Source: Escherichia coli
GTDB lineage: Bacteria > Pseudomonadota > Gammaproteobacteria > Enterobacterales > Enterobacteriaceae
DNA length: 64,000 bases
Assembly: GCF_013315695.1 (NCBI RefSeq)
Contig: NZ_CP054353.1
Reading direction: 5' to 3' (one strand)
Shown here piece by piece: positions 16,134 through 38,131 of this stretch (position 1 is its first letter; every line of letters begins with the position of its first letter). The notes beneath the pieces are model-generated. The model searched no databases, was not told the DNA's origin, and saw nothing but the letters and a program-made list of their open reading frames with translations. The position numbers and the translations under genes are program-made.

Positions 16134-16574
16134 AGTAAGTACAAAACCTATTCGTTGTATGACAAATGTCACAATTCGATCATGGATAAATCGGGGCAAA
16201 AATGCAATGTTGCAGCACTATTTATCTCATATTATTTGAGGGTAATAACCTCACATTATCCCTGAATTAAAAGTGGTAATAATAAAACATTATTTAAGAA
16301 ATATCGCATGTGGAGACACTATATTAAATATTGTCAACCTAAAGAAACTCCTAAAAACCATATTGAATGACACTTAATATAATTCTTAAAAATAGCCAAT
16401 TGCCGAATTGTTACCTTGCCTGCTATTCCGTTAGCTGTAACACTTCCTCCTGCATTATTGGAGAGCCAATATTCAATTACCATAATGTCACCTTATATTC
16501 GGAAGTTAATTTCCGCAATAACCCTTTCTCATCAACGACTGTATGTTGAGAGAGTTTTAAAAATTAAGCTAAAT

Positions 16575-16613
16575 CAGTGTATTGGTAGCTAAAAAGCCAG
16601 GGGCGGTAGCGTG
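16575..16613 (+). promoter_or_regulatory. JUMPstart element with ops site (GGCGGTAGCGTG) in the colanic acid operon leader; RfaH-dependent antitermination signal
   Basis: CAGTGTATTGGTAGCTAAAAAGCCAGGGGCGGTAGCGTG about 180 bp upstream of wza; nearly identical to a second copy upstream of rmlB. Confidence 0.75.
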
Positions 16614-16791
16614 TCTGGATGCCTGAAAGACCAGTCTGAATTATTCTGTCAATAGCCTGCGGATGAAATCAATTTTTTTAGGACTGATGCCAGTTAAATT
16701 TTTATTCAATTAACTGCAAGGTAAATGTGCATGGCGACATTGCTATTAATAGTGCACAGGATAATTACTCTGCCAAAGTGATAAATAAACA

Positions 16792-17931
16792 ATGATGAAA
16801 TCCAAAATGAAATTGATGCCATTATTGGTGTCAGTAACCTTGATAAGCGGTTGCACAGTACTTCCGGGCAGCAATATGTCGACGATGGGGAAAGACGTCA
16901 TCAAACAGCAGGACGCTGATTTCGATCTCGACAAAATGGTGAATGTTTATCCGCTGACCCCGCGCCTGATTGATCAATTACGCCCACGCCCCAACGTAGC
17001 GCGCCCCAATATGACGCTGGAAAGTGAGATCGCGAATTATCAGTATCGCGTCGGGCCGGGGGACGTTCTTAATGTCACCGTCTGGGATCACCCGGAACTC
17101 ACCACGCCAGCTGGTCAGTACCGCAGCTCCAGCGACACCGGCAACTGGGTACAGCCTGACGGCACCATGTTCTACCCGTATATCGGCAAGGTTCACGTCG
17201 TGGGGAAAACGCTCGCTGAAATCCGCAGTGATATTACCGGGCGCTTAGCGACGTACATCGCTGACCCGCAGGTGGACGTTAATATCGCCGCCTTCCGCTC
17301 ACAAAAGGCCTATATCTCCGGACAGGTGAATAAATCCGGCCAACAGGCGATCACCAACGTGCCACTGACCATTCTCGATGCCATCAACGCCGCGGGTGGC
17401 CTGACTGATACCGCTGACTGGCGCAACGTGGTGCTAACACACAATGGTCGTGAAGAGCGCATTTCTTTGCAGGCGCTGATGCAAAACGGCGACCTCAATC
17501 AGAACCGACTGCTTTACCCCGGCGATATTCTTTACGTGCCGCGTAATGATGATCTGAAAGTATTTGTGATGGGTGAAGTGAAGAAACAGAGCACCCTGAA
17601 AATGGACTTTAGCGGCATGACCCTGACTGAAGCCCTGGGCAATGCTGAAGGCATCGACATGACCACCTCCAACGCCAGCGGCATCTTTGTCATTCGTCCG
17701 CTGAAAGGCGAGGGCGGGCGTAATGGCAAGATTGCCAATATCTACCAGCTGGATATGTCCGATGCCACGTCGCTGGTGATGGCGACAGAATTCCGCCTGC
17801 AACCTTATGACGTGGTGTATGTCACCACCGCCCCGGTTTCCCGCTGGAACCGTCTGATCAATCAGTTGCTGCCAACTATTAGCGGTGTCCGTTACATGAC
17901 GGATACAGCCAGCGACATTCATAACTGGTAA
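16792..17931 (+). CDS. wza: Colanic acid outer membrane polysaccharide export lipoprotein Wza
   Basis: 379-aa ORF, lipoprotein signal (LISGCTV), recognised as Wza. Confidence 0.95.
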
Positions 17932-17936
17932 TCGTC

Positions 17937-18380
17937 ATGTTTAACAACATCTTAGTTGTCTGTGTCGGCAATATTTGCCGCTCCCCGACGGCGGAACGCT
18001 TACTGCAACGTTATCACCCGGAGCTGAAAGTGGAGTCCGCTGGACTCGGCGCGCTGGTCGGTAAGGGCGCTGACCCTACTGCTATCAGCGTCGCCGCAGA
18101 ACATCAACTGTCTCTGGAAGGTCACTGTGCACGGCAAATCAGCCGCCGTCTGTGTCGCAACTACGACCTGATTTTGACCATGGAAAAGCGCCATATCGAA
18201 CGCTTATGCGAGATGGCACCCGAGATGCGCGGCAAAGTGATGCTGTTTGGTCACTGGGATAACGAATGTGAAATCCCCGATCCGTATCGCAAAAGCCGGG
18301 AAACGTTTGCAGCGGTGTACACATTACTTGAACGGTCTGCCCGCCAGTGGGCGCAGGCATTGAACGCAGAGCAGGTATAA
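17937..18380 (+). CDS. wzb: Low molecular weight protein-tyrosine phosphatase Wzb
   Basis: 147-aa ORF with the CVGNICRSP active-site motif. Confidence 0.95.
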   Translation: MFNNILVVCVGNICRSPTAERLLQRYHPELKVESAGLGALVGKGADPTAISVAAEHQLSLEGHCARQISRRLCRNYDLILTMEKRHIERLCEMAPEMRGKVMLFGHWDNECEIPDPYRKSRETFAAVYTLLERSARQWAQALNAEQV

Positions 18381-18382
18381 GA

Positions 18383-20545
18383 ATGACAGAAAAAGTAAAA
18401 CAACATGCCGCTCCGGTAACGGGCAGTGATGAAATCGATATTGGTCGCCTGGTCGGCACCGTCATTGAAGCGCGCTGGTGGGTAATTGGCATCACCGCCG
18501 TATTTGCCCTCTGTGCCGTGGTTTACACCTTCTTCGCCACGCCGATTTATAGTGCCGACGCACTGGTACAAATCGAGCAAAACAGCGGCAATTCGTTAGT
18601 GCAGGACATTGGTTCGGCATTAGCCAACAAACCGCCAGCATCGGACGCCGAGATCCAGTTGATTCGTTCGCGTCTGGTGCTTGGTAAAACGGTGGACGAT
18701 CTCGACCTCGATATTGCAGTGAGCAAAAACACGTTCCCGATTTTCGGTGCGGGCTGGGATCGCCTGATGGGACGCCAGAACGAGACGGTAAAAGTGACCA
18801 CCTTTAACCGCCCGAAAGAGATGGCGGATCAGGTGTTTACGCTTAATGTGCTGGACGATAAAAACTACACTCTGAGCAGCGATGGCGGCTTTAGCGCCCG
18901 TGGGCAAGCGGGCCAGATGCTGAAAAAAGAAGGCGTCACGCTGATGGTTGAAGCCATTCACGCCCGCCCGGGCAGTGAGTTTACCGTCACCAAATACTCC
19001 ACGCTGGGGATGATCAATCAACTGCAAAACAGCCTGACGGTAACGGAGAACGGCAAAGACGCAGGCGTACTGAGCCTGACTTATACCGGTGAAGATCGCG
19101 AACAGATCCGCGACATTCTTAACAGCATCGCCCGTAACTATCAGGAACAAAATATTGAGCGCAAATCCGCGGAAGCGTCGAAAAGCCTCGCCTTCCTCGC
19201 GCAACAGTTACCGGAAGTACGTAGCCGCCTTGATGTTGCCGAAAATAAATTGAATGCCTTCCGTCAGGATAAAGATTCTGTTGATCTGCCGCTGGAAGCG
19301 AAAGCGGTGCTCGATTCGATGGTGAACATCGACGCACAATTGAACGAACTGACCTTTAAAGAAGCGGAAATCTCCAAGCTGTACACCAAAGTTCACCCGG
19401 CGTATCGCACGCTGCTGGAGAAACGGCAGGCGCTGGAAGACGAAAAAGCCAAACTTAATGGTCGCGTAACGGCGATGCCGAAAACCCAGCAGGAGATTGT
19501 CCGTCTGACCCGCGATGTCGAGTCTGGTCAGCAGGTCTATATGCAGCTGCTGAATAAAGAGCAGGAGCTGAAAATCACCGAAGCCAGCACCGTCGGCGAT
19601 GTGCGCATTGTTGACCCGGCAATCACCCAGCCAGGTGTACTGAAACCGAAGAAAGGGCTGATTATCCTCGGCGCGATTATCCTTGGCCTGATGCTCTCTA
19701 TCGTGGGTGTACTGCTGCGCTCGTTGTTTAATCGTGGCATCGAAAGCCCGCAGGTGCTGGAAGAACACGGTATCAGCGTCTATGCCAGCATCCCGTTGTC
19801 GGAATGGCAGAAAGCGCGCGATAGCGTCAAAACCATCAAAGGAGTTAAACGCTATAAACAGAGCCAGCTACTGGCGGTAGGGAATCCAACCGATCTGGCG
19901 ATTGAAGCCATCCGCAGTCTGCGTACCAGTCTGCACTTCGCGATGATGCAGGCGCAGAACAATGTGTTGATGATGACCGGGGTTAGCCCGTCAATCGGTA
20001 AAACCTTTGTCTGCGCTAACCTGGCGGCGGTGATCAGTCAGACCAATAAACGGGTGTTGTTGATCGACTGCGATATGCGCAAAGGCTACACCCACGAGTT
20101 GTTGGGCACCAATAACGTCAATGGCCTGTCGGAAATTTTGATTGGTCAGGGCGATATTACTACCGCTGCTAAACCGACCTCTATTGCCAAATTTGATCTG
20201 ATCCCGCGCGGTCAGGTGCCGCCAAATCCTTCTGAACTGTTGATGAGCGAACGCTTTGCCGAACTGGTGAACTGGGCGAGTAAAAACTACGACCTGGTGT
20301 TGATTGATACGCCGCCGATTCTGGCAGTGACCGATGCGGCAATTGTTGGTCGTCATGTCGGAACCACGTTAATGGTGGCGCGTTATGCGGTCAACACATT
20401 GAAAGAAGTGGAAACCAGTCTGAGCCGCTTTGAGCAAAACGGTATTCCGGTGAAAGGGGTGATTCTGAACTCCATCTTCCGCCGCGCCAGCGCGTATCAG
20501 GATTATGGCTATTACGAATACGAATATAAGTCGGATGCGAAATAA
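18383..20545 (+). CDS. wzc: Tyrosine autokinase / polysaccharide co-polymerase Wzc
   Basis: ORF track starts at 18347; trimmed to ATG 18383 (MTEKVKQH...), 720 aa, C-terminal Tyr-rich tail (YQDYGYYEYEYKSD). Confidence 0.95.
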   Translation: MTEKVKQHAAPVTGSDEIDIGRLVGTVIEARWWVIGITAVFALCAVVYTFFATPIYSADALVQIEQNSGNSLVQDIGSALANKPPASDAEIQLIRSRLVLGKTVDDLDLDIAVSKNTFPIFGAGWDRLMGRQNETVKVTTFNRPKEMADQVFTLNVLDDKNYTLSSDGGFSARGQAGQMLKKEGVTLMVEAIHARPGSEFTVTKYSTLGMINQLQNSLTVTENGKDAGVLSLTYTGEDREQIRDILNSIARNYQEQNIERKSAEASKSLAFLAQQLPEVRSRLDVAENKLNAFRQDKDSVDLPLEAKAVLDSMVNIDAQLNELTFKEAEISKLYTKVHPAYRTLLEKRQALEDEKAKLNGRVTAMPKTQQEIVRLTRDVESGQQVYMQLLNKEQELKITEASTVGDVRIVDPAITQPGVLKPKKGLIILGAIILGLMLSIVGVLLRSLFNRGIESPQVLEEHGISVYASIPLSEWQKARDSVKTIKGVKRYKQSQLLAVGNPTDLAIEAIRSLRTSLHFAMMQAQNNVLMMTGVSPSIGKTFVCANLAAVISQTNKRVLLIDCDMRKGYTHELLGTNNVNGLSEILIGQGDITTAAKPTSIAKFDLIPRGQVPPNPSELLMSERFAELVNWASKNYDLVLIDTPPILAVTDAAIVGRHVGTTLMVARYAVNTLKEVETSLSRFEQNGIPVKGVILNSIFRRASAYQDYGYYEYEYKSDAK

Positions 20546-20563
20546 CGAGATCCGTTGTCGGAT

Positions 20564-20612
20564 GCGATGCTGACGCATCTTATCCGACCTACGTTCACGC
20601 CGCATCCGGCAA
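20564..20612. repeat. REP-like palindromic element downstream of wzc
   Basis: GTCGGATGCGATGCTGACGCATCTTATCCGAC...GCCGCATCCGGCAA, REP-type sequence. Confidence 0.5.
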
Positions 20613-20673
20613 CAGAACCCGTAAACAAGCTTATAAACCGGCAGAACATCTCGACACTCCGGGAGAACAACCT

Positions 20674-21513
20674 ATGAAAGACAATCCGCTGATCTCAATC
20701 TATATGCCGACCTGGAACCGCCAACAACTGGCGATTCGGGCGATAAAATCGGTCCTGCGCCAGGACTACAACAACTGGGAGATGATTATCGTGGATGATT
20801 GCTCCACCTCCTGGGAACAACTACAACAGTACGTCACCGCCCTCAACGATCCGCGCATCACTTACATTCACAACGACATTAACAGCGGGGCGTGCGCGGT
20901 ACGTAACCAGGCGATTATGCTGGCGCAAGGGGAATACATCACCGGGATCGATGATGATGATGAATGGACACCCAACCGCCTGAGCGTCTTCCTCGCCCAT
21001 AAACAGCAACTGGTCACTCACGCCTTTTTGTACGCTAACGACTACGTTTGCCAGGGCGAAGTCTATTCCCAACCGGCAAGCTTGCCGCTGTATCCCAAAT
21101 CGCCGTATTCACGCCGCCTGTTCTACAAACGCAATATCATTGGCAATCAGGTTTTTACCTGGGCATGGCGTTTCAAAGAGTGTTTGTTCGATACCGAACT
21201 GAAAGCGGCACAGGATTACGACATCTTCCTGCGGATGGTGGTGGAGTACGGCGAACCGTGGAAAGTGGAAGAGGCGACGCAGATCCTGCATATCAATCAC
21301 GGCGAAATGCAGATCACCTCGTCACCGAAAAAATTCTCCGGATACTTCCACTTTTACCGCAAGCACAAAGACAAATTCGACCGCGCCAGCAAAAAATATC
21401 AGCTGTTTACCCTCTACCAGATCCGCAATAAACGCATGACCTGGCGCACTTTGCTGACGCTGCTGTCGGTGCGTAACGGCAAACGTCTGGCTGATGGTAT
21501 TCGGGGGCGCTAA
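20674..21513 (+). CDS. wcaA: Colanic acid biosynthesis glycosyltransferase WcaA (GT2)
   Basis: 279-aa ORF, recognised; colanic acid cluster synteny. Confidence 0.93.
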   Translation: MKDNPLISIYMPTWNRQQLAIRAIKSVLRQDYNNWEMIIVDDCSTSWEQLQQYVTALNDPRITYIHNDINSGACAVRNQAIMLAQGEYITGIDDDDEWTPNRLSVFLAHKQQLVTHAFLYANDYVCQGEVYSQPASLPLYPKSPYSRRLFYKRNIIGNQVFTWAWRFKECLFDTELKAAQDYDIFLRMVVEYGEPWKVEEATQILHINHGEMQITSSPKKFSGYFHFYRKHKDKFDRASKKYQLFTLYQIRNKRMTWRTLLTLLSVRNGKRLADGIRGR

Positions 21514-21515
21514 AG

Positions 21516-22004
21516 ATGCTGGAAGATCTGCGCGCCAACAGCTGGAGTTTACGCCCGTGCTGCATGGTTCTTGCCTATCGCGCCGCTCATTTTTGTTCGG
21601 TGTGGCGCAAAAAGAACGTCCTCAACAATCTGTGGGCGGCCCCGCTGCTGGTGCTGTATCGCATTATCACCGAATGCTTTTTCGGTTATGAAATCCAGGC
21701 CGCCGCGACCATAGGCCGACGCTTTACTATCCATCACGGTTACGCCGTGGTGATCAATAAAAACGTGGTCGCGGGGGATGATTTCACCATTCGTCACGGC
21801 GTCACTATCGGCAATCGTGGTGCCGATAACATGGCATGTCCACACATTGGCAATGGCGTCGAACTCGGTGCCAACGTCATTATTCTTGGTGATATCACGC
21901 TTGGTAACAACGTCACCGTGGGCGCGGGCAGCGTGGTGCTCGACTCTGTCCCGGACAACGCGCTGGTGGTGGGAGAAAAAGCGCGAGTGAAGGTAATTAA
22001 ATGA
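21516..22004 (+). CDS. wcaB: Colanic acid biosynthesis acetyltransferase WcaB (hexapeptide repeat)
   Basis: 162-aa ORF, hexapeptide-repeat acyltransferase; synteny. Confidence 0.93.
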   Translation: MLEDLRANSWSLRPCCMVLAYRAAHFCSVWRKKNVLNNLWAAPLLVLYRIITECFFGYEIQAAATIGRRFTIHHGYAVVINKNVVAGDDFTIRHGVTIGNRGADNMACPHIGNGVELGANVIILGDITLGNNVTVGAGSVVLDSVPDNALVVGEKARVKVIK

Positions 22005-23218
22005 ATATTCTGCAATTTAATGTGCGACTGGCGGAAGGCGGGGCAGCAGGTGTGGCGTTAGATCTCCACCAGCGTGCGCTGCAACAGGGGCTGGCATCAC
22101 ATTTTGTCTACGGCTACGGCAAAGGCGGCAAAGAGAGCGTCAGTCATCAAAACTATCCGCAGGTCATCAAACATACGCCGCGGATGACCGCGATGGCGAA
22201 CATTGCGTTGTTTCGTCTGTTTAATCGCGATCTGTTCGGCAATTTCAATGAGTTATATCGCACCATTACTCGCACACCGGGTCCGGTGGTCCTGCATTTT
22301 CATGTGCTGCACAGCTACTGGTTGAATCTTAAGAGCGTGGTGCGCTTTTGCGAAAAAGTGAAAAACCATAAACCGGATGTCACTCTGGTCTGGACACTGC
22401 ACGACCACTGGAGCGTTACCGGACGCTGCGCCTTTACCGACGGTTGCGAAGGCTGGAAAACGGGCTGCCAGAAATGCCCGACCTTAAATAATTATCCGCC
22501 GGTGAAGATTGATCGCGCACACCAACTGGTGGCGGGCAAACGGCAGTTATTCCGCGAGATGCTGGCACTGGGCTGTCAGTTTATTTCCCCCAGCCAGCAT
22601 GTGGCAGACGCTTTCAATAGTCTGTACGGTCCAGGGCGTTGCCGGATTATCAATAACGGTATTGATATGGCAACCGAAGCGATTCTGGCGGACTTGCCTC
22701 TGGTGCGCGAAACCCAGAACAAGCCGAAAATCGCGGTGGTGGCGCATGATCTGCGTTACGACGGCAAAACTAACCAGCAACTGGTACGCGAGATGATGGC
22801 GCTGGGCGACAAAATCGAACTGCATACCTTTGGTAAGTTCTCGCCGTTCACCGCTGGCAACGTGGTTAATCACGGCTTTGAAACTGACAAGCGCAAGTTG
22901 ATGAGCGCGCTCAATCAGATGGATGCGCTGGTATTCAGTTCTCGCGTCGATAACTACCCGCTGATTTTGTGTGAGGCGCTATCGATTGGCGTGCCGGTGA
23001 TTGCCACCCATAGCGACGCGGCGCGTGAAGTGTTGCAAAAATCCGGCGGTAAAACCGTCAGCGAAGAAGATGTGCTGCAACTGGTGCAGTTAAGCAAACC
23101 GGAAATCGCACAGGCGATATTTGGTACCACGCTGGCTGAGTTCAGCCAGCGCAGCCGCGCCGCCTACAGTGGACAACAGATGCTGGAGGAGTATGTCAAC
23201 TTCTATCAGAATCTGTAG
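22001..23218 (+). CDS. wcaC: Colanic acid biosynthesis glycosyltransferase WcaC (GT4)
   Basis: 405-aa ORF; synteny. Confidence 0.93.
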   Translation: MNILQFNVRLAEGGAAGVALDLHQRALQQGLASHFVYGYGKGGKESVSHQNYPQVIKHTPRMTAMANIALFRLFNRDLFGNFNELYRTITRTPGPVVLHFHVLHSYWLNLKSVVRFCEKVKNHKPDVTLVWTLHDHWSVTGRCAFTDGCEGWKTGCQKCPTLNNYPPVKIDRAHQLVAGKRQLFREMLALGCQFISPSQHVADAFNSLYGPGRCRIINNGIDMATEAILADLPLVRETQNKPKIAVVAHDLRYDGKTNQQLVREMMALGDKIELHTFGKFSPFTAGNVVNHGFETDKRKLMSALNQMDALVFSSRVDNYPLILCEALSIGVPVIATHSDAAREVLQKSGGKTVSEEDVLQLVQLSKPEIAQAIFGTTLAEFSQRSRAAYSGQQMLEEYVNFYQNL

Positions 23219-24413
23219 CTACCTGCTGCTGCCGCTGATCTACCTGCTGGTTAACGTCAAAATCGCCCAGCTTGGCGAAAGTTTCCCCATCACCATCGTC
23301 ACTTTTTTACCTGTCTTGTTACTGCTGTTTTTAGAACGCATCAGCGTTAAAAAATTGATGATTGCCTTAGGGATTGGCGCGGGACTCACGGCGTTTAACT
23401 ACCTGTTTGGTCAGTCGTTGGATGCCAGTAAATACGTCACTTCAACCATGCTTTTTGTCTATATTGTGATCATTATTGGCATGGTGTGGAGTATTCGTTT
23501 TAAAACAATTTCGCCACACAACCATTGCAAGATATTACGTTTTTTTTATCTGGTGGTCGGGCTGGTGGTGGCGCTGGCGGCGGTGGAGATGGCGCAAATT
23601 ATCCTCACCGGCGGCAGCAGTATTATGGAGTCGATTTCGAAATATCTGATTTACAGCAACAGCTATGTGCTGAATTTCATTAAATTCGGCGGCAAGCGCA
23701 CGACAGCACTTTATTTCGAACCGGCATTTTTCGCTCTGGCATTAATCTCAATTTGGCTCAGCATCAAACAGTTTGGTATCAAAACGCCTAAAACCGATGC
23801 TATGATTCTCGCAGGGATAATATTATCCGGATCGTTTTCAGGGGTTATGACCTTTATCCTGTTTTATTTGCTGGAGTGGGCATTTCAATATCTGAATAAA
23901 GAGGCGATTAAGAAAAGGTTACCGTTAGCATTGATTTCTCTGGCTGTATTCCTGGTTGGTGTGGTAATTGCATTTCCTTATATTTCCACCCGTCTGGGCG
24001 ATTTAGGTACAGAAGGATCGTCATCATATTATCGTATTGTCGGTCCGCTGGTGATGGTCGGTTATTCTTTGACCCATATTGACGGTGTAGTCAGATTTGG
24101 CTCACTTTATGAATATGTCGCATCATTCGGAATATTTAACGGTGCGGATGTCGGAAAAACCATAGACAATGGTTTGTATCTGCTGATTATTTATTTTTCC
24201 TGGTTCGCGGTGTTTTTATCACTGTGGTACATGGGGAAAGTGATAAAAATGATGATCAACGCTTTTGGTGATAACCGCAATTTTCGCGTGCAATTATATC
24301 TTTTTACTCCGGTATCGCTGTTTTTTACCGGTTCGATATTTAGCCCGGAATATGCATTTTTAATCGTCTGTCCGTTTATTTTGCGAAAAGCGTTAAATAT
24401 ACACCCTAAATAA
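23193..24413 (+). CDS. wcaD: Putative colanic acid polymerase WcaD (multi-pass membrane protein)
   Basis: ORF track starts at 23121; trimmed to ATG 23193 (MSTSIRICSYLLLPLIYLL...); overlaps the wcaC 3' end. Confidence 0.9.
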   Translation: MSTSIRICSYLLLPLIYLLVNVKIAQLGESFPITIVTFLPVLLLLFLERISVKKLMIALGIGAGLTAFNYLFGQSLDASKYVTSTMLFVYIVIIIGMVWSIRFKTISPHNHCKILRFFYLVVGLVVALAAVEMAQIILTGGSSIMESISKYLIYSNSYVLNFIKFGGKRTTALYFEPAFFALALISIWLSIKQFGIKTPKTDAMILAGIILSGSFSGVMTFILFYLLEWAFQYLNKEAIKKRLPLALISLAVFLVGVVIAFPYISTRLGDLGTEGSSSYYRIVGPLVMVGYSLTHIDGVVRFGSLYEYVASFGIFNGADVGKTIDNGLYLLIIYFSWFAVFLSLWYMGKVIKMMINAFGDNRNFRVQLYLFTPVSLFFTGSIFSPEYAFLIVCPFILRKALNIHPK

Positions 24414-24493
24414 TTCGAGTTGCAGGAAGTTGGTGAGCGAGGAAAACCAACGCACATGCAGTTTGAAGTATGACGGGTATTACGAGGTAAAAC

Positions 24494-25240
24494 ATGTTGC
24501 TTAGCATAATCACTGTCGCGTTTCGTAACCTCGAAGGGATAGTCAAAACACACGCCTCGCTGGCGCATCTGGCGCAGGCGGACGATATCAGCTTCGAATG
24601 GATTGTTGTCGATGGCGGTTCCAATGACGGCACCCGTGAGTACCTGGAAAATCTCAAGGGTATCTATAACCTACGCTTTGTCAGCGAACCAGATAACGGT
24701 ATCTACGACGCCATGAACAAGGGCATTGCGATGGCACAAGGCAAGTTCGCGTTGTTTCTCAACTCGGGCGATATTTTTCATCAGGATGCCGCATATTTTG
24801 TCCGTAAGTTAAAAGTGCAAAAAGATAACGTGATGATCACCGGCGATGCGCTGCTGGATTTTGGCGACGGGCATAAAATTAAACGTAGCGCCAAACCGGG
24901 CTGGTATATTTACCACAGCCTGCCCGCCAGTCATCAGGCGATATTTTTCCCGGTGTCCGGCTTGAAGAAATGGCGTTATGACCTGGAATATAAAGTTTCG
25001 TCCGACTACGCGCTGGCGGCCAAAATGTATAAAGCTGGTTATGCATTTAAAAAACTCAATGGCCTGGTGTCTGAATTTTCTATGGGTGGGGTATCAACCA
25101 CCAATAATATGGAATTGTGTGCTGACGCCAAAAAAGTCCAACGGCAGATATTGCACGTGCCTGGCTTTTGGGCTGAATTATCCTGGCATTTACGCCAACG
25201 TACGACCTCAAAGACGAAAGCCTTATATAACAAAAGCTGA
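24494..25240 (+). CDS. wcaE: Colanic acid biosynthesis glycosyltransferase WcaE (GT2)
   Basis: 248-aa ORF; synteny. Confidence 0.93.
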
Positions 25241-25255
25241 ATATAAGGGAAAACG

Positions 25256-25804
25256 ATGCAGGATTTAAGTGGATTCTCGGTGCCGAAAGGGTTCCGGGGT
25301 GGCAACGCTATTAAAGTGCAATTGTGGTGGGCAGTACAGGCAACAATATTTGCCTGGTCGCCACAAGTATTGTATCGCTGGCGGGCATTTTTATTACGTT
25401 TATTCGGCGCAAAAATAGGAAAAAACGTAGTGATTCGTCCGTCAGTAAAAATTACCTATCCGTGGAAATTAACCTTAGGTGATTACGCGTGGGTCGGCGA
25501 TGAGGTCAATTTATATACCCTCGGTGAAATAACCATTGGCGCACATTCGGTGATATCGCAAAAAAGTTATTTATGCACCGGTAGCCACGACCATGCAAGT
25601 CAACATTTCACCATTAACGCCACGCCTATTGTGATTGGCGAGAAATGCTGGCTGGCAACCGATGTCTTTGTTGCCCCTGGCGTCACGATCGGCAACGGCA
25701 CCGTCGTGGGTGCGCGAAGCAGTGTTTTTAAATCGCTTCCGGCAAATGTGGTTTGCCGGGGGAATCCCGCAGTGGTGATACGCGAACGCGTTGAAACTGA
25801 ATAA
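25256..25804 (+). CDS. wcaF: Colanic acid biosynthesis acetyltransferase WcaF (hexapeptide repeat)
   Basis: 182-aa ORF; synteny. Confidence 0.93.
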   Translation: MQDLSGFSVPKGFRGGNAIKVQLWWAVQATIFAWSPQVLYRWRAFLLRLFGAKIGKNVVIRPSVKITYPWKLTLGDYAWVGDEVNLYTLGEITIGAHSVISQKSYLCTGSHDHASQHFTINATPIVIGEKCWLATDVFVAPGVTIGNGTVVGARSSVFKSLPANVVCRGNPAVVIRERVETE

Positions 25805-25830
25805 ATTCAAAAAATACAGAGGAATAAGAC

Positions 25831-26952
25831 ATGTCAAAAGTCGCTCTCATCACCGGTGTAACCGGACAAGACGGTTCTTACCTGGCAGAGTTTCTGCTGG
25901 AAAAAGGTTACGAGGTGCATGGTATTAAGCGTCGTGCATCGTCATTCAACACCGAGCGCGTGGATCACATTTATCAGGATCCGCACACCTGCAACCCGAA
26001 ATTCCATCTGCATTATGGCGATCTGAGTGATACCTCCAACCTGACGCGCATTTTGCGTGAAGTACAGCCGGATGAAGTGTACAACCTGGGGGCAATGAGC
26101 CACGTTGCGGTTTCTTTTGAGTCACCGGAATATACCGCTGACGTTGATGCGATGGGTACGCTGCGCCTGCTCGAGGCGATCCGCTTCCTCGGTCTGGAAA
26201 AGAAAACCCGTTTCTATCAGGCTTCCACCTCTGAACTGTACGGTCTGGTGCAGGAAATTCCGCAGAAAGAAACCACGCCGTTCTACCCGCGATCTCCGTA
26301 TGCGGTCGCCAAACTGTACGCCTACTGGATCACCGTTAACTACCGCGAATCCTACGGCATGTACGCCTGCAACGGTATTCTCTTCAACCATGAATCCCCG
26401 CGCCGTGGCGAAACCTTCGTTACCCGCAAAATCACCCGCGCAATCGCCAATATCGCCCAGGGGCTGGAGTCGTGCCTGTATCTCGGCAATATGGATTCCC
26501 TGCGTGACTGGGGCCACGCCAAAGACTACGTAAAAATGCAGTGGATGATGCTGCAACAGGAACAACCGGAAGATTTCGTTATTGCCACCGGCGTTCAGTA
26601 CTCCGTGCGTCAGTTCGTGGAAATGGCGGCGGCACAGCTGGGCATCAAACTGCGCTTTGAAGGCACGGGCGTTGAAGAGAAGGGCATTGTGGTTTCCGTC
26701 ACCGGGCATGATGCACCAGGCGTTAAACCGGGTGATGTGATTATCGCCGTTGACCCGCGCTACTTCCGTCCTGCTGAAGTAGAAACACTGCTCGGCGACC
26801 CGACCAAAGCGCACGAAAAACTGGGCTGGAAACCGGAAATCACCCTCAGAGAGATGGTGTCTGAAATGGTGGCTAATGACCTCGAAGCGGCGAAAAAACA
26901 CTCTCTGCTGAAATCTCACGGCTACGACGTGGCGATCGCGCTGGAGTCATAA
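25831..26952 (+). CDS. gmd: GDP-mannose 4,6-dehydratase
   Basis: 373-aa [34 protein letters not shown]..., recognised as Gmd. Confidence 0.96.
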
Positions 26953-26954
26953 GC

Positions 26955-27920
26955 ATGAGTAAACAACGCATTTTTATTGCTGGCCATCGCGGGATGGTCG
27001 GTTCCGCCATCAGGCGGCAGCTCGAACAGCGCGGTGATGTAGAGCTGGTATTACGCACCCGCGATGAACTGAACCTGCTGGACAGCCGCGCCGTGCATGA
27101 TTTCTTTGCCAGCGAACGTATTGACCAGGTCTATCTGGCGGCGGCGAAAGTGGGCGGCATTGTTGCCAACAACACGTATCCGGCGGATTTCATCTATCAG
27201 AACATGATGATTGAGAGCAACATCATTCACGCCGCGCATCAGAACGACGTGAACAAACTGCTGTTTCTCGGATCGTCCTGTATCTACCCGAAACTGGCAA
27301 AACAGCCGATGGCAGAAAGCGAGTTATTGCAGGGTACGCTGGAGCCGACTAACGAGCCTTATGCTATTGCCAAAATCGCCGGGATCAAACTGTGCGAATC
27401 TTACAACCGCCAGTATGGACGCGATTACCGCTCGGTCATGCCGACCAACCTGTATGGCCCGCATGACAACTTCCACCCGAGTAATTCGCATGTGATCCCT
27501 GCATTGCTGCGTCGCTTCCACGAGGCGACGGCACAGAATGCACCGGACGTGGTGGTGTGGGGCAGCGGTACACCGATGCGCGAATTTCTGCACGTCGATG
27601 ATATGGCGGCGGCGAGCATTCATGTGATGGAGCTGGCGCACGAAGTCTGGCTGGAGAACACCCAACCGATGCTGTCGCACATTAACGTCGGCACGGGCGT
27701 TGACTGCACTATCCGCGAGCTGGCGCAAACCATCGCCAAAGTGGTGGGTTACAAAGGTCGGGTGGTTTTTGATGCCAGTAAACCGGATGGTACGCCGCGC
27801 AAACTGCTGGATGTGACGCGCCTGCATCAGCTTGGCTGGTATCACGAAATCTCACTGGAAGCGGGGCTTGCCAGCACTTACCAGTGGTTCCTTGAGAATC
27901 AAGACCGCTTTCGGGGGTAA
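26955..27920 (+). CDS. fcl: GDP-L-fucose synthase
   Basis: 321-aa [22 protein letters not shown]..., recognised as Fcl. Confidence 0.96.
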
Positions 27921-27922
27921 TG

Positions 27923-28402
27923 ATGTTTTTACGTCAGGAAGACTTTGCCACGGTAGTGCGCTCCACTCCGCTTGTCTCTCTCGACTTTATTGTCGAGAAC
28001 AGTCGCGGCGAGTTTCTGCTTGGCAAAAGAACCAACCGCCCGGCGCAGGGTTACTGGTTTGTGCCGGGAGGGCGCGTGCAGAAAGACGAAACGCTGGAAG
28101 CCGCATTTGAGCGGCTGACGATGGCGGAACTGGGGCTGCGTCTGCCGATAACAGCAGGCCAGTTTTACGGTGTCTGGCAGCACTTTTATGACGATAACTT
28201 CTCTGGCACGGATTTCACCACTCACTATGTGGTGCTCGGTTTTCGCTTCAGAGTAGCGGAAGAAGAACTGTTACTGCCGGATGAGCAGCATGACGATTAC
28301 CGCTGGCTGACGCCGGACGCGTTGCTCGCCAGTGACAATGTTCACGCTAACAGCCGCGCCTATTTTCTCGCTGAGAAGCGTGCCGGAGTACCCGGATTAT
28401 GA
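27923..28402 (+). CDS. gmm: GDP-mannose mannosyl hydrolase (Nudix)
   Basis: ORF track starts at 27920 (MMFLRQ...); second ATG at 27923 gives the 159-aa form. Confidence 0.93.
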
Positions 28403-29622
28403 AAATACTGGTCTACGGCATTAACTACTCGCCGGAGTTAACCGGCATCGGCAAGTACACCGGCGAGATGGTGGAATGGCTGGCGGCACAAGGTCATGAG
28501 GTGCGGGTTATTACCGCACCGCCTTACTACCCGCAATGGCAGGTGGGCGAGAACTATTCCGCCTGGCGGTACAAACGAGAAGAGGGGGCCGCCACGGTGT
28601 GGCGCTGCCCGCTGTACGTGCCAAAACAGCCGAGCACCCTGAAACGCCTGTTACATCTCGGCAGTTTTGCCGTCAGCAGTTTTTTCCCGTTGATGGCGCA
28701 ACGTCGCTGGAAGCCGGATCGCATTATTGGCGTAGTGCCAACGCTGTTTTGCACGCCGGGAATGCGCCTGCTGGCGAAACTCTCTGGTGCGCGTACCGTG
28801 CTGCATATTCAGGATTACGAAGTGGACGCCATGCTGGGGCTGGGCCTTGCCGGAAAAGGCAAAGGCGGCAAAGTGGCACAGCTGGCGACGGCGTTCGAAC
28901 GTAGCGGACTGCATAACGTCGATAACGTCTCCACGATTTCGCGTTCGATGATGAATAAAGCCATCGAAAAAGGCGTGGCGGCAGAAAACGTCATCTTCTT
29001 CCCCAACTGGTCAGAAATTGCCCGTTTTCAGCATGTCGCAGACGCCGATGTTGATGCCCTTCGTAACCAGCTTGGCCTGCCGGATAACAAAAAAATCATT
29101 CTTTACTCCGGCAATATTGGTGAAAAGCAGGGGCTGGAAAACGTTATTGAAGCTGCCGATCGCCTGCGTGATGAACCGCTGATTTTTGCCATTGTCGGGC
29201 AGGGCGGCGGCAAAGCTCGGCTGGAAAAAATGGCGCAACAGCGTGGTCTGCACATCATGCAATTTTTTCCGCTGCAATCGTATGACGCTTTACCCGCACT
29301 GCTGAAGATGGGCGATTGCCATCTGGTAGTGCAAAAACGCGGCGCGGCAGATGCCGTATTACCGTCGAAACTGACCAATATTCTGGCGGTAGGCGGTAAC
29401 GCGGTGATTACTGCTGAAGCCCACACAGAACTGGGACAGCTTTGCGAAACCTTTCCGGGCATTGCGGTTTGCGTAGAACCGGAATCGGTCGAGGCGCTGG
29501 TGGCGGGGATCCGTCAGGCGCTCCTGCTGCCCAAACACAACACGGTGGCACGTGAATATGCCGAACGCACGCTCGATAAAGAGAACGTGTTACGTCAATT
29601 TATAAATGATATTCGGGGATAA
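28399..29622 (+). CDS. wcaI: Colanic acid biosynthesis glycosyltransferase WcaI (GT4)
   Basis: 407-aa ORF; synteny. Confidence 0.93.
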
Positions 29623-29624
29623 TT

Positions 29625-31061
29625 ATGGCGCAGTCGAAACTCTATCCAGTTGTGATGGCAGGTGGCTCCGGTAGCCGCTTATGGCCGCTTTCCCGCGTAC
29701 TTTACCCCAAGCAGTTTTTATGCCTGAAAGGCGATCTCACCATGCTGCAAACCACCATCTGCCGCCTGAACGGCGTGGAGTGCGAAAGCCCGGTGGTGAT
29801 TTGCAATGAGCAGCACCGCTTTATTGTCGCGGAACAGCTGTGTCAACTGAACAAACTCACCGAGAACATTATTCTCGAACCGGCAGGGCGTAACACTGCA
29901 CCTGCCATTGCGCTGGCGGCGCTGGCGGCAAAACGTCATAGCCCGGAGAGCGACCCGTTAATGCTGGTCTTGGCGGCGGATCATGTGATTGCCGATGAAG
30001 ACGCGTTCCGTGCCGCCGTGCGTAATGCCATGCCATATGCCGAAGCGGGCAAGCTGGTGACCTTCGGCATTGTGCCGGATCTACCTGAAACCGGATATGG
30101 CTATATTCGTCGCGGTGAAGTGTCTGCGGGTGAGCAGGATACGGTGGCCTTTGAAGTGGCGCAGTTTGTCGAAAAACCGAATCTGGAAACCGCCCAGGCC
30201 TATGTAGCAAGCGGCGAATATTACTGGAACAGCGGCATGTTCCTGTTCCGCGCCGGATGCTATCTCGAAGAACTGAAAAAATATCGCCCGGATATTCTCG
30301 ACGCCTGTGAAAAAGCGATGAGCGCCGTCGATCCGGATCTCGATTTTATTCGTGTGGATGAAGAAGCGTTTCTGGCCTGCCCGGAAGAGTCGGTGGATTA
30401 CGCGGTCATGGAACGAACGGCAGATGCCGTTGTGGTGCCGATGGATGCAGGCTGGAGCGATGTCGGCTCCTGGTCCTCTTTATGGGAGATCAGCGCCCAC
30501 ACCGCCGAGGGCAACGTTTGCCACGGTGATGTGATTAATCACAAAACCGAAAACAGCTATGTGTATGCCGAATCTGGCCTGGTCACCACCGTCGGGGTGA
30601 AAGATTTGGTGGTAGTGCAGACCAAAGATGCGGTGCTGATTGCCGACCGTAACGCGGTTCAGGATGTGAAAAAAGTGGTCGAGCAGATCAAAGCCGATGG
30701 TCGCCATGAGCATCGGGTGCATCGCGAAGTGTATCGCCCGTGGGGCAAATATGACTCTATCGACGCGGGCGATCGCTACCAGGTGAAACGCATCACCGTG
30801 AAACCGGGCGAAGGTTTGTCGGTACAGATGCATCATCACCGCGCGGAACACTGGGTAGTGGTCGCAGGAACGGCAAAAGTCACCATCGACGGTGATATCA
30901 AGCTGCTTGGTGAAAACGAGTCCATTTATATTCCGCTGGGGGCGACGCATTGCCTGGAAAACCCGGGGAAAATTCCGCTCGATTTAATTGAAGTACGCTC
31001 CGGCTCTTATCTCGAAGAGGATGATGTGGTGCGCTTCGCGGATCGCTACGGACGGGTGTAG
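29625..31061 (+). CDS. cpsB: Mannose-1-phosphate guanylyltransferase
   Basis: 478-aa [27 protein letters not shown]..., recognised as ManC/CpsB. Confidence 0.95.
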
Positions 31062-31162
31062 CAGTTGCATAATCAACCGGATTAATTCTTCGGTAAATAA
31101 CGACAAAAACAAAATTGGCCGTTTCGGTCAGGGCCAACTATTGCCTGAAAAAGGGTAAAGAC

Positions 31163-32533
31163 ATGAAAAAATTAACCTGCTTTAAAGCCTATGATATTCG
31201 CGGGAAATTAGGCGAAGAACTGAATGAAGATATTGCCTGGCGCATTGGTCGCGCCTATGGCGAATTTCTCAAACCGAAAACCATTGTGTTAGGCGGTGAT
31301 GTCCGCCTCACCAGCGAAACCTTAAAACTGGCGCTGGCGAAAGGTTTACAGGATGCGGGCGTCGATGTGCTGGATATTGGCATGTCCGGCACCGAAGAGA
31401 TCTATTTCGCCACGTTCCATCTCGGCGTGGATGGCGGCATCGAAGTTACCGCCAGCCATAACCCGATGGATTACAACGGCATGAAGCTGGTGCGCGAAGG
31501 GGCTCGCCCGATCAGCGGCGATACCGGACTGCGCGACGTCCAGCGTCTGGCAGAAGCCAACGACTTTCCTCCCGTTGATGAAACCAAACGCGGTCGCTAT
31601 CAGCAAATCAACCTGCGTGATGCATACGTTGATCACCTGTTCGGTTATATCAATGTCAAAAACCTTACGCCGCTCAAGCTGGTGATCAACTCCGGGAACG
31701 GCGCAGCGGGTCCGGTGGTGGACGCCATCGAAGCCCGTTTTAAAGCCCTCGGCGCACCGGTGGAGTTAATCAAAGTGCATAACACGCCGGACGGCAATTT
31801 CCCCAACGGTATTCCTAACCCGTTGCTGCCGGAATGCCGCGACGACACCCGTAATGCGGTCATCAAACACGGCGCGGATATGGGCATTGCCTTTGATGGC
31901 GATTTTGACCGCTGTTTCCTGTTTGACGAAAAAGGGCAGTTTATTGAGGGCTACTACATTGTCGGCCTGCTGGCAGAAGCATTCCTCGAAAAAAATCCCG
32001 GCGCGAAGATCATCCACGATCCACGTCTCTCCTGGAACACCGTTGATGTGGTGACTGCCGCAGGCGGCACCCCGGTAATGTCGAAAACCGGACACGCCTT
32101 TATTAAAGAACGTATGCGCAAGGAAGACGCTATCTACGGTGGCGAAATGAGCGCCCACCATTACTTCCGTGATTTCGCTTACTGCGACAGCGGCATGATC
32201 CCGTGGCTGCTGGTCGCCGAACTGGTGTGCCTGAAAGGAAAAACGCTGGGCGAACTGGTGCGCGACCGGATGGCGGCGTTTCCGGCAAGCGGTGAGATCA
32301 ACAGCAAACTGGCGCAACCCGTTGAGGCGATTAACCGCGTGGAACAGCATTTTAGCCGTGAGGCGCTGGCGGTGGATCGCACCGATGGCATCAGCATGAC
32401 CTTTGCCGACTGGCGCTTTAACCTGCGCTCCTCCAACACCGAACCGGTGGTGCGGTTGAATGTGGAATCGCGCGGTGATGTGCCGCTGATGGAAGCGCGA
32501 ACGCGAACTCTGCTGACGTTGCTGAACGAGTAA
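31163..32533 (+). CDS. cpsG: Phosphomannomutase
   Basis: ORF track starts at 31115; trimmed to ATG 31163 ([17 protein letters not shown]...), 456 aa, phosphohexomutase motif TASHNP. Confidence 0.95.
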
Positions 32534-32587
32534 TGTCGGATCTTCCCTTACCCCACTGCGGGTAAGGGGCTAATAACAGGAACAACG

Positions 32588-33982
32588 ATGACAAATCTAA
32601 AAAAGCGCGAGCGAGCGAAAACCAATGCATCGTTAATCTCTATGGTGCAACGCTTTTCAGATATCACCATCATGTTTGCCGGGCTATGGCTGGTTTGCGA
32701 AGTGAGCGGACTGTCATTCCTCTACATGCACCTGTTGGTGGCGCTGATTACGCTGGTGGTGTTCCAGATGCTGGGCGGCATCACCGATTTTTATCGCTCA
32801 TGGCGCGGTGTTCGGGCAGCGACAGAATTTGCCCTGCTGCTACAAAACTGGACCTTAAGCGTGATTTTCAGCGCCGGACTGGTGGCGTTCAACAATGATT
32901 TCGACACGCAACTGAAAATCTGGCTGGCGTGGTATGGGCTGACCAGTATCGGACTGGTGGTTTGCCGTTCATGTATTCGCATTGGGGCGGGCTGGCTGCG
33001 TAATCATGGCTATAACAAGCGCATGGTCGCCGTAGCGGGGGATTTAGCCGCCGGACAAATGCTGATGGAGAGCTTCCGTAATCAGCCGTGGTTAGGGTTT
33101 GAAGTGGTGGGCGTATACCACGACCCAAAACCGGGCGGCGTTTCTAACGACTGGGCGGGCAATCTGCAACAACTGGTCGAGGATGCGAAAGCGGGCAAGA
33201 TTCATAACGTCTATATCGCGATGCAGATGTGCGACGGCGCGCGAGTGAAAAAACTGGTCCATCAACTGGCGGACACCACCTGTTCGGTGCTGCTGATCCC
33301 CGATGTCTTTACCTTCAACATTCTCCATTCACGCCTCGAAGAGATGAATGGCGTACCGGTGGTGCCGCTGTATGACACGCCGCTTTCCGGGGTTAACCGC
33401 CTGCTCAAACGTGCGGAAGACATTGTGCTGGCGACGCTTATCCTGCTGCTGATCTCCCCGGTGCTGTGCTGCATTGCGCTGGCGGTGAAACTGAGCTCAC
33501 CGGGGCCGGTTATTTTCCGCCAGACTCGCTACGGCATGGATGGCAAACCGATCAAAGTGTGGAAGTTCCGATCCATGAAAGTGATGGAGAACGACAAAGT
33601 GGTGACTCAGGCGACGCAGAACGATCCGCGCGTCACCAAAGTGGGGAACTTTCTGCGCCGCACCTCGCTGGACGAATTGCCGCAGTTTATCAATGTGCTG
33701 ACTGGCGGGATGTCGATTGTCGGTCCACGTCCGCACGCGGTGGCGCATAACGAACAGTATCGACAGCTCATTGAAGGCTACATGCTGCGCCATAAGGTGA
33801 AACCGGGCATTACCGGCTGGGCGCAGATTAATGGCTGGCGTGGCGAAACCGACACGCTGGAGAAAATGGAAAAACGCGTCGAGTTCGACCTTGAGTACAT
33901 CCGCGAATGGAGCGTCTGGTTCGATATCAAAATCGTTTTCCTGACGGTATTCAAGGGCTTCGTTAACAAAGCGGCATATTGA
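32588..33982 (+). CDS. wcaJ: UDP-glucose:undecaprenyl-phosphate glucose-1-phosphate transferase (colanic acid initiating enzyme)
   Basis: 464-aa ORF, polyprenyl glycosylphosphotransferase family; synteny. Confidence 0.93.
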   Translation: MTNLKKRERAKTNASLISMVQRFSDITIMFAGLWLVCEVSGLSFLYMHLLVALITLVVFQMLGGITDFYRSWRGVRAATEFALLLQNWTLSVIFSAGLVAFNNDFDTQLKIWLAWYGLTSIGLVVCRSCIRIGAGWLRNHGYNKRMVAVAGDLAAGQMLMESFRNQPWLGFEVVGVYHDPKPGGVSNDWAGNLQQLVEDAKAGKIHNVYIAMQMCDGARVKKLVHQLADTTCSVLLIPDVFTFNILHSRLEEMNGVPVVPLYDTPLSGVNRLLKRAEDIVLATLILLLISPVLCCIALAVKLSSPGPVIFRQTRYGMDGKPIKVWKFRSMKVMENDKVVTQATQNDPRVTKVGNFLRRTSLDELPQFINVLTGGMSIVGPRPHAVAHNEQYRQLIEGYMLRHKVKPGITGWAQINGWRGETDTLEKMEKRVEFDLEYIREWSVWFDIKIVFLTVFKGFVNKAAY

Positions 33983-33983
33983 T

Positions 33984-35462
33984 ATGAGCTTACGTGAAAA
34001 AACCATCAGCGGCGCGAAGTGGTCGGCGATTGCCACGGTGATCATCATCGGCCTCGGGCTGGTGCAGATGACCGTGCTGGCGCGGATTATCGACAACCAC
34101 CAGTTCGGCCTGCTTACCGTGTCGCTGGTGATTATCGCGCTGGCAGATACGCTTTCTGACTTCGGTATCGCTAACTCGATTATTCAGCGAAAAGAAATCA
34201 GTCACCTGGAACTTACCACGTTGTACTGGCTGAACGTCGGGCTGGGGCTTGTGGTGTGCGTGGCGGTGTTTTTGTTGAGTGATCTCATTGGTGACGTGCT
34301 GAACAACCCAGACCTGGCACCGTTGATTAAAATATTGTCGCTGGCGTTTGTGGTGATCCCCCACGGACAGCAGTTCCGCGCGTTGATGCAAAAAGAGCTG
34401 GAGTTCAACAAAATCGGCATGATCGAAACCAGCGCGGTGCTGGCGGGCTTCACTTTTACGGTGGTTAGCGCCCATTTCTGGCCACTGGCGATGACCGCGA
34501 TCCTCGGTTATCTGGTCAATAGTGCGGTAAGAACGCTGCTGTTTGGCTACTTTGGTCGCAAAATTTATCGCCCCGGTCTGCATTTCTCGCTGGCGTCGGT
34601 GGCACCGAACTTACGCTTTGGTGCCTGGCTGACGGCGGACAGCATCATCAACTATCTCAATACCAACCTTTCAACGCTGGTGCTGGCGCGTATTCTCGGC
34701 GCGGGCGTGGCAGGGGGATACAACCTGGCGTACAACGTGGCCGTTGTGCCGCCGATGAAGCTGAACCCAATCATCACCCGCGTGTTGTTTCCGGCATTTG
34801 CCAAAATTCAGGACGACACCGAAAAGCTGCGCGTTAACTTCTACAAGCTGCTGTCGGTAGTGGGGATTATCAACTTTCCGGCGCTGCTGGGGCTGATGGT
34901 GGTGTCGAATAACTGTGTACCGCTGGTCTTTGGTGAGAAGTGGAACAGCATTATTCCGGTGCTGCAATTGCTGTGTGTGGTGGGGCTGCTGCGCTCAGTG
35001 GGGAACCCGATTGGTTCGCTGCTGATGGCGAAAGCGCGGGTCGATATCAGCTTTAAATTCAACGTATTCAAAACCTTTATGTTTATTCCGGCGATTGTTA
35101 TTGGTGGGCAGATGGCGGGCGCAATCGGCGTCACGCTTGGTTTCCTGCTGGTGCAGATTATCAACACCATTCTGAGCTATTTCGTGATGATTAAACCGGT
35201 GCTCGGTTCCAGTTATCGTCAGTACATCCTGAGTTTGTGGCTGCCGTTTTATCTCTCGCTGCCGACACTGGTGGTCAGTTATGCGCTGGGCCTATTGCTG
35301 AAAGGGCAACTGGCGCTGGGGATGCTGCTGGCGGTGCAAATAGCCGCGGGCGTGCTGGCGTTTGTGGTGATGATTGTGCTGTCGCGCCATCCGCTGGTGG
35401 TGGAAGTGAAGCGTCAGTTTTGTCGCAGCGAAAAAATGAAAATGCTTTTACGGGCGGGGTGA
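33984..35462 (+). CDS. wzxC: Colanic acid repeat-unit flippase WzxC
   Basis: 492-aa polytopic membrane ORF; synteny. Confidence 0.93.
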   Translation: MSLREKTISGAKWSAIATVIIIGLGLVQMTVLARIIDNHQFGLLTVSLVIIALADTLSDFGIANSIIQRKEISHLELTTLYWLNVGLGLVVCVAVFLLSDLIGDVLNNPDLAPLIKILSLAFVVIPHGQQFRALMQKELEFNKIGMIETSAVLAGFTFTVVSAHFWPLAMTAILGYLVNSAVRTLLFGYFGRKIYRPGLHFSLASVAPNLRFGAWLTADSIINYLNTNLSTLVLARILGAGVAGGYNLAYNVAVVPPMKLNPIITRVLFPAFAKIQDDTEKLRVNFYKLLSVVGIINFPALLGLMVVSNNCVPLVFGEKWNSIIPVLQLLCVVGLLRSVGNPIGSLLMAKARVDISFKFNVFKTFMFIPAIVIGGQMAGAIGVTLGFLLVQIINTILSYFVMIKPVLGSSYRQYILSLWLPFYLSLPTLVVSYALGLLLKGQLALGMLLAVQIAAGVLAFVVMIVLSRHPLVVEVKRQFCRSEKMKMLLRAG

Positions 35463-35474
35463 ATGGCTATCCCC

Positions 35475-35545
35475 GTAAGGTCGTGCGCATTTTCCCCCTC
35501 ACCCTAACCCTCTCCCCAGGGGGCGAGGGGACTGATCGAGCACAG
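35475..35545. repeat. REP-like interspersed element carrying the CCCTCACCCTAACCCTCTCCCC motif
   Basis: Sequence ...CCCCCTCACCCTAACCCTCTCCCCAGGGGGCGAGGGGACTG...; a related motif (CTCCCTAACCCTCACTCC) occurs in the sib repeat units at about 600-650 and 940-975. Confidence 0.4.
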
Positions 35546-38121: not shown

Positions 38122-38131
38122 AGGAGAACGT

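Follow-up and report, generated by a model that had tools for sequence, protein, structure and literature searches.

Results

The yegH-wza spacer and the colanic acid operon

The window, by which we mean the whole stretch of 64,000 nucleotides of Escherichia coli DNA analysed in our study, contains the gene yegH, which runs leftward from 16133, and, on the other side of a spacer, the rightward genes wza (from 16792), wzb, wzc and wcaA to wcaM. The gene names were taken from an annotated E. coli genome that is identical to the window over the leader. The region between yegH and wza comprises 658 bp (16134-16791) and has a GC content of 0.32-0.40, compared with 0.52-0.58 in its flanks. This organization is widespread in the species: a segment of 671 bp that includes the spacer and its edges matches E. 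coli NZ_CP030768 with 100% identity and a K-12-like record with about 98.5%, and 4818 of the 5426 complete E. coli genomes have the spacer with an identity of 95% or more, the annotation always placing it between yegH and wza. From the start of wza to the stop codon of wcaM (39526) the operon measures 22.7 kb, in agreement with the length of about 23 kb given by an earlier reading of the letters alone (hereafter the sequence-only reading), and within it wzc ends at 20545, followed by a gap of 128 nt before wcaA. The features of the leader and the operon to which our analysis refers are the following:

16575..16613 (+): JUMPstart, 39 bp, a full-length match to Rfam RF01707
16582..16600 (+): potential hairpin in the 5' half of JUMPstart, with a UUGGU / GCCAG stem and a 9-nt loop, according to the structure line of the Rfam model
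16602..16613 (+, the non-template strand for wza): ops (operon polarity suppressor), GGCGGTAGCGTG, 12 nt, an exact match
16640..16791 (+): leader downstream of ops, in which the blocks 16640-16702 and 16745-16791 are very conserved, with a per-column identity mostly of 0.8-1.0
16792..39526 (+): colanic acid operon wza-wzb-wzc-wcaABCDEF-gmd-fcl-gmm-wcaI-cpsB-cpsG-wcaJ-wzxC-wcaKLM, from the ORF list, the unit on which ops acts
20530..20610 (+): REP-like hairpin across the wzc stop codon and the wzc-wcaA gap, with a minimum free energy of -46.8 kcal/mol and z = -3.7, none of 200 shuffles being as stable

The gene wza has no canonical Shine-Dalgarno sequence; the sequence that precedes its ATG is ...CAAAGTGATAAATAAACA. 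A 49-aa "hypothetical protein" that PGAP places on the minus strand of the spacer (16334-16483) was rejected as a gene, given that only 2 of the 66 orthologous leaders have its ORF intact, even a second E. coli being among those in which it is interrupted. The annotation recurs in many genomes of the species and coincides in part with the conserved motifs of the cps promoter described below; it is probably a spurious gene call. On the far side of yegH, between this gene and asmA, the annotation of the leader-identical E. coli genome contains a pair formed by a RelE/ParE-family toxin and an HTH antitoxin (about 13857-14475, minus strand).

A JUMPstart element with an exact ops motif precedes wza

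The 39-mer CAGTGTATTGGTAGCTAAAAAGCCAGGGGCGGTAGCGTG occupies positions 16575-16613 on the plus strand, where the sequence-only reading had proposed a 39-bp JUMPstart. We scanned the entire 64-kb window with Rfam 15 at its gathering thresholds, and RF01707 matches exactly these coordinates on the same strand with 57.3 bits, compared with a gathering score of 35 (E = 1.6e-10), over the full model (positions 1-38 of 38). When the leader was scanned alone, the same family was recovered with E = 2e-12, and no family other than RF01707 matched. Its last 12 nucleotides are an exact ops motif, as had also been claimed, and they agree with the consensus GGCGGTAGnnTG at every specified position, so that no mismatch at a critical position was found. 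The motif lies on the correct strand for wza, and every conserved promoter-like motif of the spacer, together with its only consensus promoter match, is located upstream of it. The ATG of wza is 190 nt away from the first base of ops and 178 nt away from its last, which is the distance of "about 180 bp" anticipated from the letters.

The motif is rare in its surroundings. Two copies of GGCGGTAGCGTG occur in the 64 kb, both on the plus strand, at 16602 and 40880, while dinucleotide shuffles give an expectation of 0.33 matches even when one mismatch is tolerated. The shorter GGCGGTAG has six copies on the plus strand of the window, for which the shuffles give 1.15 matches with both strands counted. 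Two of the sense-strand copies of this 8-mer, in wzc (19873-19884, GGCGGTAGGGAA) and in wcaI (29385-29396, GGCGGTAGGCGG), were considered as further ops elements and rejected, since they possess neither the 3' nnTG nor the 5' half of JUMPstart. The element before wza, in turn, lies on the sense strand in the 5' leader of a polysaccharide operon whose first gene is wza, exceeds the Rfam threshold over the full model and has the ops consensus at the specified positions; it is a true member of the JUMPstart/ops family and not a mere lookalike. We estimate a probability of about 0.9 that it is the JUMPstart/ops element of the E. coli colanic acid (cps/wca) operon.

The second copy of the motif belongs to another JUMPstart, at 40853-40891 on the plus strand (RF01707, 60 bits), with its ops GGCGGTAGCGTG beginning at 40880. 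It is located between galF (39689-40594) and rmlB (from 40967) and is the classical O-antigen (rfb) JUMPstart. The two elements are identical at 34 of 39 positions, contain the same ops 12-mer on the same strand and lie in the leaders of long polysaccharide operons. They differ in their surroundings, since the first gene is nearer to the O-antigen copy (about 75 nt, compared with 178 nt at wza) and the flanking leaders are unrelated, and also in their expression class: the O-antigen operon is constitutive, whereas the cps operon is Rcs-dependent and H-NS-silenced (PMC9765446).

The scan of the window also identified RNA families in other places. Two SIB RNA genes (RF00113) lie at 532-674 and 861-1009, both on the minus strand, with 141.7 and 149.5 bits, and presumably constitute an ibs/sib type I toxin-antitoxin tandem. 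An algC RNA motif (RF02929, 78.2 bits) was found at 31109-31158 on the plus strand, between cpsB and cpsG, immediately before the phosphomannomutase gene, and a Histidine operon leader (RF00514, 131.6 bits) at 62244-62367 on the minus strand, at the far end of the window.

Conservation of the ops motif in the Enterobacteriaceae

A scan based on Wza, with one genome per species, provided 80 loci from about 25 enterobacterial genera, 79 of which include upstream DNA. In 76 of these 79 orthologous leaders an ops motif precedes wza by about 190 nt: 75 carry GGCGGTAG, and the remaining one carries GACGGTAG, which corresponds to the change G2A, in a leader (L005) that still scores 41.8 bits for JUMPstart. 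Counting the window, 77 leaders with ops entered the tally of 12-mers, which is given below by sequence and number of leaders:

GGCGGTAGCGTG: 63
ending in GCATG: 7
ending in GCCTG: 3
ending in GCGTA: 2
ending in GCATA: 1
beginning with GACGG: 1

The variation is thus concentrated at position 10, is rare at position 12 and occurs once at position 2, a pattern that fits the freedom allowed by the consensus. Positions 1-9 and 11 are essentially invariant across about 25 genera. Since the motif stays constant while the leader around it diverges, the comparison argues that ops has been held by selection and not by descent alone.

Special attention was given to the three of the 79 leaders in which neither JUMPstart nor ops was identified and for which RF01707 has no match anywhere in the 6-kb loci. 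These loci (L035, L036 and L039, with the leader at about 2080-2480 in each) come from Pseudescherichia vulneris, Escherichia sp. ESNIH1 and the metagenome-assembled genome UBA7338. In all of them about 60 nt spanning JUMPstart are cleanly absent, and the promoter-side motifs B to D, the distal leader blocks and the operon itself are preserved. To judge from the alignment, the leader of this Pseudescherichia clade is a natural ops deletion, and because the clade keeps both leader and operon without JUMPstart, ops is not indispensable for the retention of the operon.

RNA structure and conserved blocks of the distal leader

The Rfam model describes JUMPstart as an RNA whose stem has 5 bp, and we therefore considered whether the element acts mainly as RNA, through the UUGGU/GCCAG hairpin or through pairing with a distal UGCCAGU (16688-16694), in which case it would act on the stability of the leader or on attenuation, whether independent of the loading of RfaH or in addition to it. 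The stem is compatible with this idea, as 99.2% of its cells are pairable in 48 sequences, with a closing pair that is U-G, U-A or C-G and never C-A, and RNAalifold pairs AUUGGUA with the distal UGCCAGU. Against it, the stem shows no compensatory double changes and its scores do not differ from those of shuffles; the fold of the leader as a single sequence is not significant with respect to shuffles either (z = -0.5). We found no covarying consensus structure in the leader, in which RNAalifold gives only a long-range pairing of 7 bp. Furthermore, the distal block stays conserved in the leaders that have lost JUMPstart, so it is not kept for the sake of pairing with it. A role mainly as RNA is consequently unlikely, and we maintain the reading of the element as an ops site that acts at the level of DNA.

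The blocks at 16640-16702 and 16745-16791, the second of which extends into the first codons of wza, are about 80-100% identical over some 25 genera and persist in the JUMPstart-less leaders. There is a small chance that they form a cis-regulatory element, not described before, that acts on wza translation or on the fate of the leader. If this were true, the blocks could be a binding site for a protein or an sRNA, or a standby site, and such an element would work together with RfaH-mediated recruitment of the ribosome at a wza gene devoid of a Shine-Dalgarno sequence. The string GATGAAATC...TGATGCCA at 16662-16694 echoes the 5' end of wza, the observation from which the idea of a standby site comes. 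A leader peptide encoded by a 16-codon uORF that starts at 16664 was rejected, because it is not conserved and has an early stop in Citrobacter.

The promoter side of the spacer

Phylogenetic footprinting of 66 distinct leaders revealed four conserved blocks upstream of ops:

16295..16308 (+): motif A, TAAGAAATATCGCA (TAGGAAATATCGCA in most genera), with the best fit to the box consensus
16331..16357 (+): motif B, TTGTCAACC-TAAAGAAACTCCTA-AAAA, with an invariant TTGTCAA and an RcsB-type right half-site TCCTA; its 14-mer is at 16340-16353
16374..16392 (+): motif C, CTTAATATAATTCTTAAAA, about 90-100% conserved, which contains the string TTAATATAATTCTTAA (16374-16389) of the sequence-only reading
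16409..16450 (+): motif D, conserved across the 66 leaders, early leader or promoter-proximal, and kept in the JUMPstart-less Pseudescherichia

These motifs were compared with two descriptions of the Rcs operator: the RcsAB box consensus TaAGaatatTCctA of Wehland & Bernhard 2000, in the form in which later papers quote it, and the structure-based RcsB box TN(G/A)GAN4TC(T/C)NA (Huesa et al. 2021), in which the (G/A)GA and TC bases are read by K180 of RcsB and mutations weaken or abolish binding. Known RcsB boxes lie at -53 to -33 in rprA and at -55 to -41 in Salmonella yciG (TAAGAAAACTCCTA), and an RcsAB site can also act from far upstream, about 170 bp in the case of rcsA. It is important to consider that a match to the degenerate RcsB box pattern is not evidence by itself: the window contains 44 matches where 61 are expected, which is at or below chance. 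We discarded such matches as stand-alone evidence, and for this reason we base the argument about the Rcs box on how well the motifs are conserved and where they lie. Motifs A, B and C each provide a conserved 14-mer that resembles the box, and none of the three is perfect with respect to the structure-based pattern.

Motif A has all six capital positions of the RcsAB consensus (T1, A3, G4, T10, C11 and A14), is one mismatch away from the structure-based pattern (G at position 12) and retains at least 7 of the 8 specified positions in 54 of the 66 orthologs. On these comparisons it is the best candidate for a far-upstream RcsAB box, and we see about an even chance that it is the published RcsAB box of wza. 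In motif B only the right half looks like a box, with a conservation of 92-100%; the motif resembles the yciG box and, if the -10 element lies in motif C, it would be placed at about -50 to -37, as the RcsB boxes of rprA and yciG are. It is possible, with odds clearly below even, that motif B is the published box, and for motif C this identity appears improbable.

The sequence-only reading had pointed to an AT-rich palindromic string near 16360-16390 as a possible RcsAB-type box. The string is indeed present, at 16374-16389, and the role suggested for it did not hold up in our comparison. A functional RcsAB operator of the cps promoter at this place would find some support in that the string is one mismatch from the structure-based pattern on either strand, fits the RcsAB consensus at 10 of 14 positions, has in TAAGAAT a perfect left half on the minus strand and is 90-100% conserved. 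The mismatch, however, hits precisely one of the (G/A)GA / TC bases read by RcsB K180. On the plus strand there is a T in place of G4, and box position 4 is T in 94% of the 66 orthologs and G in none of them; on the minus strand the perfect left half is accompanied by an A at position 11. The number of pattern matches in the window is, as stated above, no greater than chance, and motif A agrees with the consensus at its capital positions, at a distance that the far-upstream site of rcsA shows to be acceptable. Finally, motif C contains TAATAT (16375-80) and a perfect TATAAT (16378-83) in E. coli, for which the other genera have TAATAT or TATTAT. We consider an RcsAB operator at this string to be unlikely. 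Given the perfect TATAAT and the absence of G4 from every ortholog, motif C is more likely the -10 region of the core promoter or at most a half-site.

If motif C is the -10 element, the start of wza transcription would be at about 16387-16391, which would put ops near +212 and the centre of motif A near -88. Since the conserved promoter-like motifs sit at 16295-16450, the 5' UTR probably measures some 400 nt and would not comprise the whole 650-bp spacer. The earlier description of an AT-rich leader of about 650 bp is therefore right as regards the intergenic region, with its 658 bp and its low GC content, and not as regards the leader, whose transcribed part is probably about 400 nt. The only consensus promoter match in the leader is at 16459-16486, and inspection by eye of motifs B to D gave no convincing sigma-E-type or minus-strand promoters.

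Two further observations concern these motifs. An inverted repeat, TTTAAGAAATAT / ATAATTCTTAAA, connects 16293-16304 with 16379-16390, with 92% complementarity at a distance of 74 nt, such that the right half of motif C repeats motif A's left half in inverted orientation; it may represent two TAAGAA half-sites that flank the core promoter. The gene ugd is Rcs-regulated, and the exact 14-mer of motif A, TAAGAAATATCGCA, occurs again at 53159-53172 (plus strand) inside its coding sequence (52776-53942, encoding ...HKKYRT...), which may be a coincidence or an effect of coding constraint.

RfaH and the transcription of the operon

The JUMPstart/ops element of the cps operon, its occupancy by RfaH and its role are already known. 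The literature that cites Stout 1996 attributes the cps JUMPstart to that work, and a 2023 article in JACS Au (PMC9976346) ascribes wca transcription to 'a JUMPStart-RfaH antitermination mechanism', with references to Stout 1996 and to Hobbs & Reeves 1994; Navasa et al. also count among the support for the JUMPstart/ops reading. In CFT073, RfaH ChIP signal was reported at eight loci, wza-wcaM among them (Hustmyer et al. 2022, PMC9765446). Data set S2 of that study places the wza ops, GGCGGTAGCGTG, on the non-template strand in the UTR at -190 from the first gene, with the wza transcription start given as NA. The occupancy at wza was confined to delta-hns delta-stpA cells, that is, it was seen once the silencing of initiation by H-NS and StpA had been lifted; the wza region is covered by H-NS, and the double mutant shows an upstream sigma70 peak. 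The same study lists 34 intragenic ops-like sites without RfaH signal. In addition, a published statement says that the genes downstream of wzc require RfaH.

The sequence-only reading predicted RfaH-dependent antitermination across the operon, and this prediction is supported by the Rfam match, the strand, the match to ops and the conserved distance to wza, together with the published ChIP signal at -190 and the published need for RfaH beyond wzc. Occupancy by RfaH and dependence on it come from the literature; what our analysis itself observed is the element, with the strand and position it occupies and the degree to which it is conserved.

It could be argued, on the contrary, that ops is an inactive relic, kept by descent from other polysaccharide loci, and that colanic acid expression depends on RcsAB-driven initiation alone. 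The Pseudescherichia clade, which still has the operon and the remaining leader blocks without the element, is consistent with this view, as is the fact that RfaH occupancy is limited to delta-hns delta-stpA cells. Nevertheless, the near invariance of ops positions 1-9 and 11 over about 25 genera amid a diverging leader indicates selection, the RfaH ChIP is positive at the wza ops and negative at the 34 intragenic ops-like sites, and the literature states a dependence on RfaH beyond wzc. We regard an inactive ops as very improbable and retain a functional RfaH-loading element as our reading.

RfaH binds and displaces NusG, with the result that Rho-dependent polarity is suppressed, and its refolded KOW domain recruits the ribosome. 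The ops motif is read as single-stranded non-template DNA in the paused elongation complex (Artsimovitch & Landick 2002 and later work). In the mechanism that we propose for the window, transcription would start at the Rcs-activated, H-NS-silenced promoter in the AT-rich spacer, at a predicted site about 210 nt upstream of ops. When the polymerase is over 16602-16613, the bases of ops would be exposed on the non-template strand and the enzyme would pause, and the exposed motif would recruit RfaH, the NusG paralog. RfaH would remain on the elongation complex and keep NusG out, with Rho-dependent polarity suppressed as a consequence; it would also counter roadblocks, presumably those formed by H-NS and StpA, and, if transcription and translation are coupled here, help to recruit the ribosome at the Shine-Dalgarno-less wza. 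In this way the polymerase could get past the wzc-wcaA hairpin to the distal genes, as far as wcaM 22.7 kb away.

The REP-like hairpin at 20530-20610 is, on the basis of its predicted folding, a candidate point of polarity or attenuation for the RfaH-modified polymerase, and its position fits the published need for RfaH in genes beyond wzc. A terminator scan gave no excess of intrinsic-terminator-like sites in the operon (24, compared with 23.7 in shuffles), and because this number is at the level of shuffles, the barriers that RfaH overcomes are probably of the Rho or H-NS type and not intrinsic.

The element accounts for the full-length transcription of an AT-rich capsule operon of 23 kb, silenced by H-NS, after the Rcs envelope-stress system has turned it on, and it is of use for annotation and for the engineering of colanic acid production. 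As both occupancy and role have been published, the field gains nothing new from the element itself. The additions of our study are modest and comparative: the fixed distance between ops and wza across the Enterobacteriaceae, the natural loss of ops in one clade and the three-motif architecture of the promoter.

Comparison with known JUMPstart and RfaH systems

JUMPstart is reportedly due to Hobbs and Reeves in 1994, and the ops motif to Bailey, Hughes and Koronakis in 1997. The closest known system is the cps/wca JUMPstart of E. coli K-12 (Stout 1996), which shares with the window the yegH-wza spacer, the element of 39 bp, the operon, and the ops GGCGGTAGCGTG at 190 nt from wza. The two show no difference of substance; the window comes from a different strain of E. 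coli.

The wza leader also shares its arrangement, a non-template ops in the 5' leader, with waaQ (rfa), hlyCABD, kps region 3, F tra, the group 1 capsule (K30) and Klebsiella cps. These are long AT-rich operons, horizontally acquired or devoted to surface structures, in which RfaH counters polarity and H-NS, as is proposed here for wza. The wza operon is unlike the other RfaH/ops operons in that its initiation is gated by RcsA/RcsB and it is cryptic in rich medium. At the other RfaH/ops loci the distance from ops to the gene ranges from 60 to 634 nt (PMC9765446, Data set S2).
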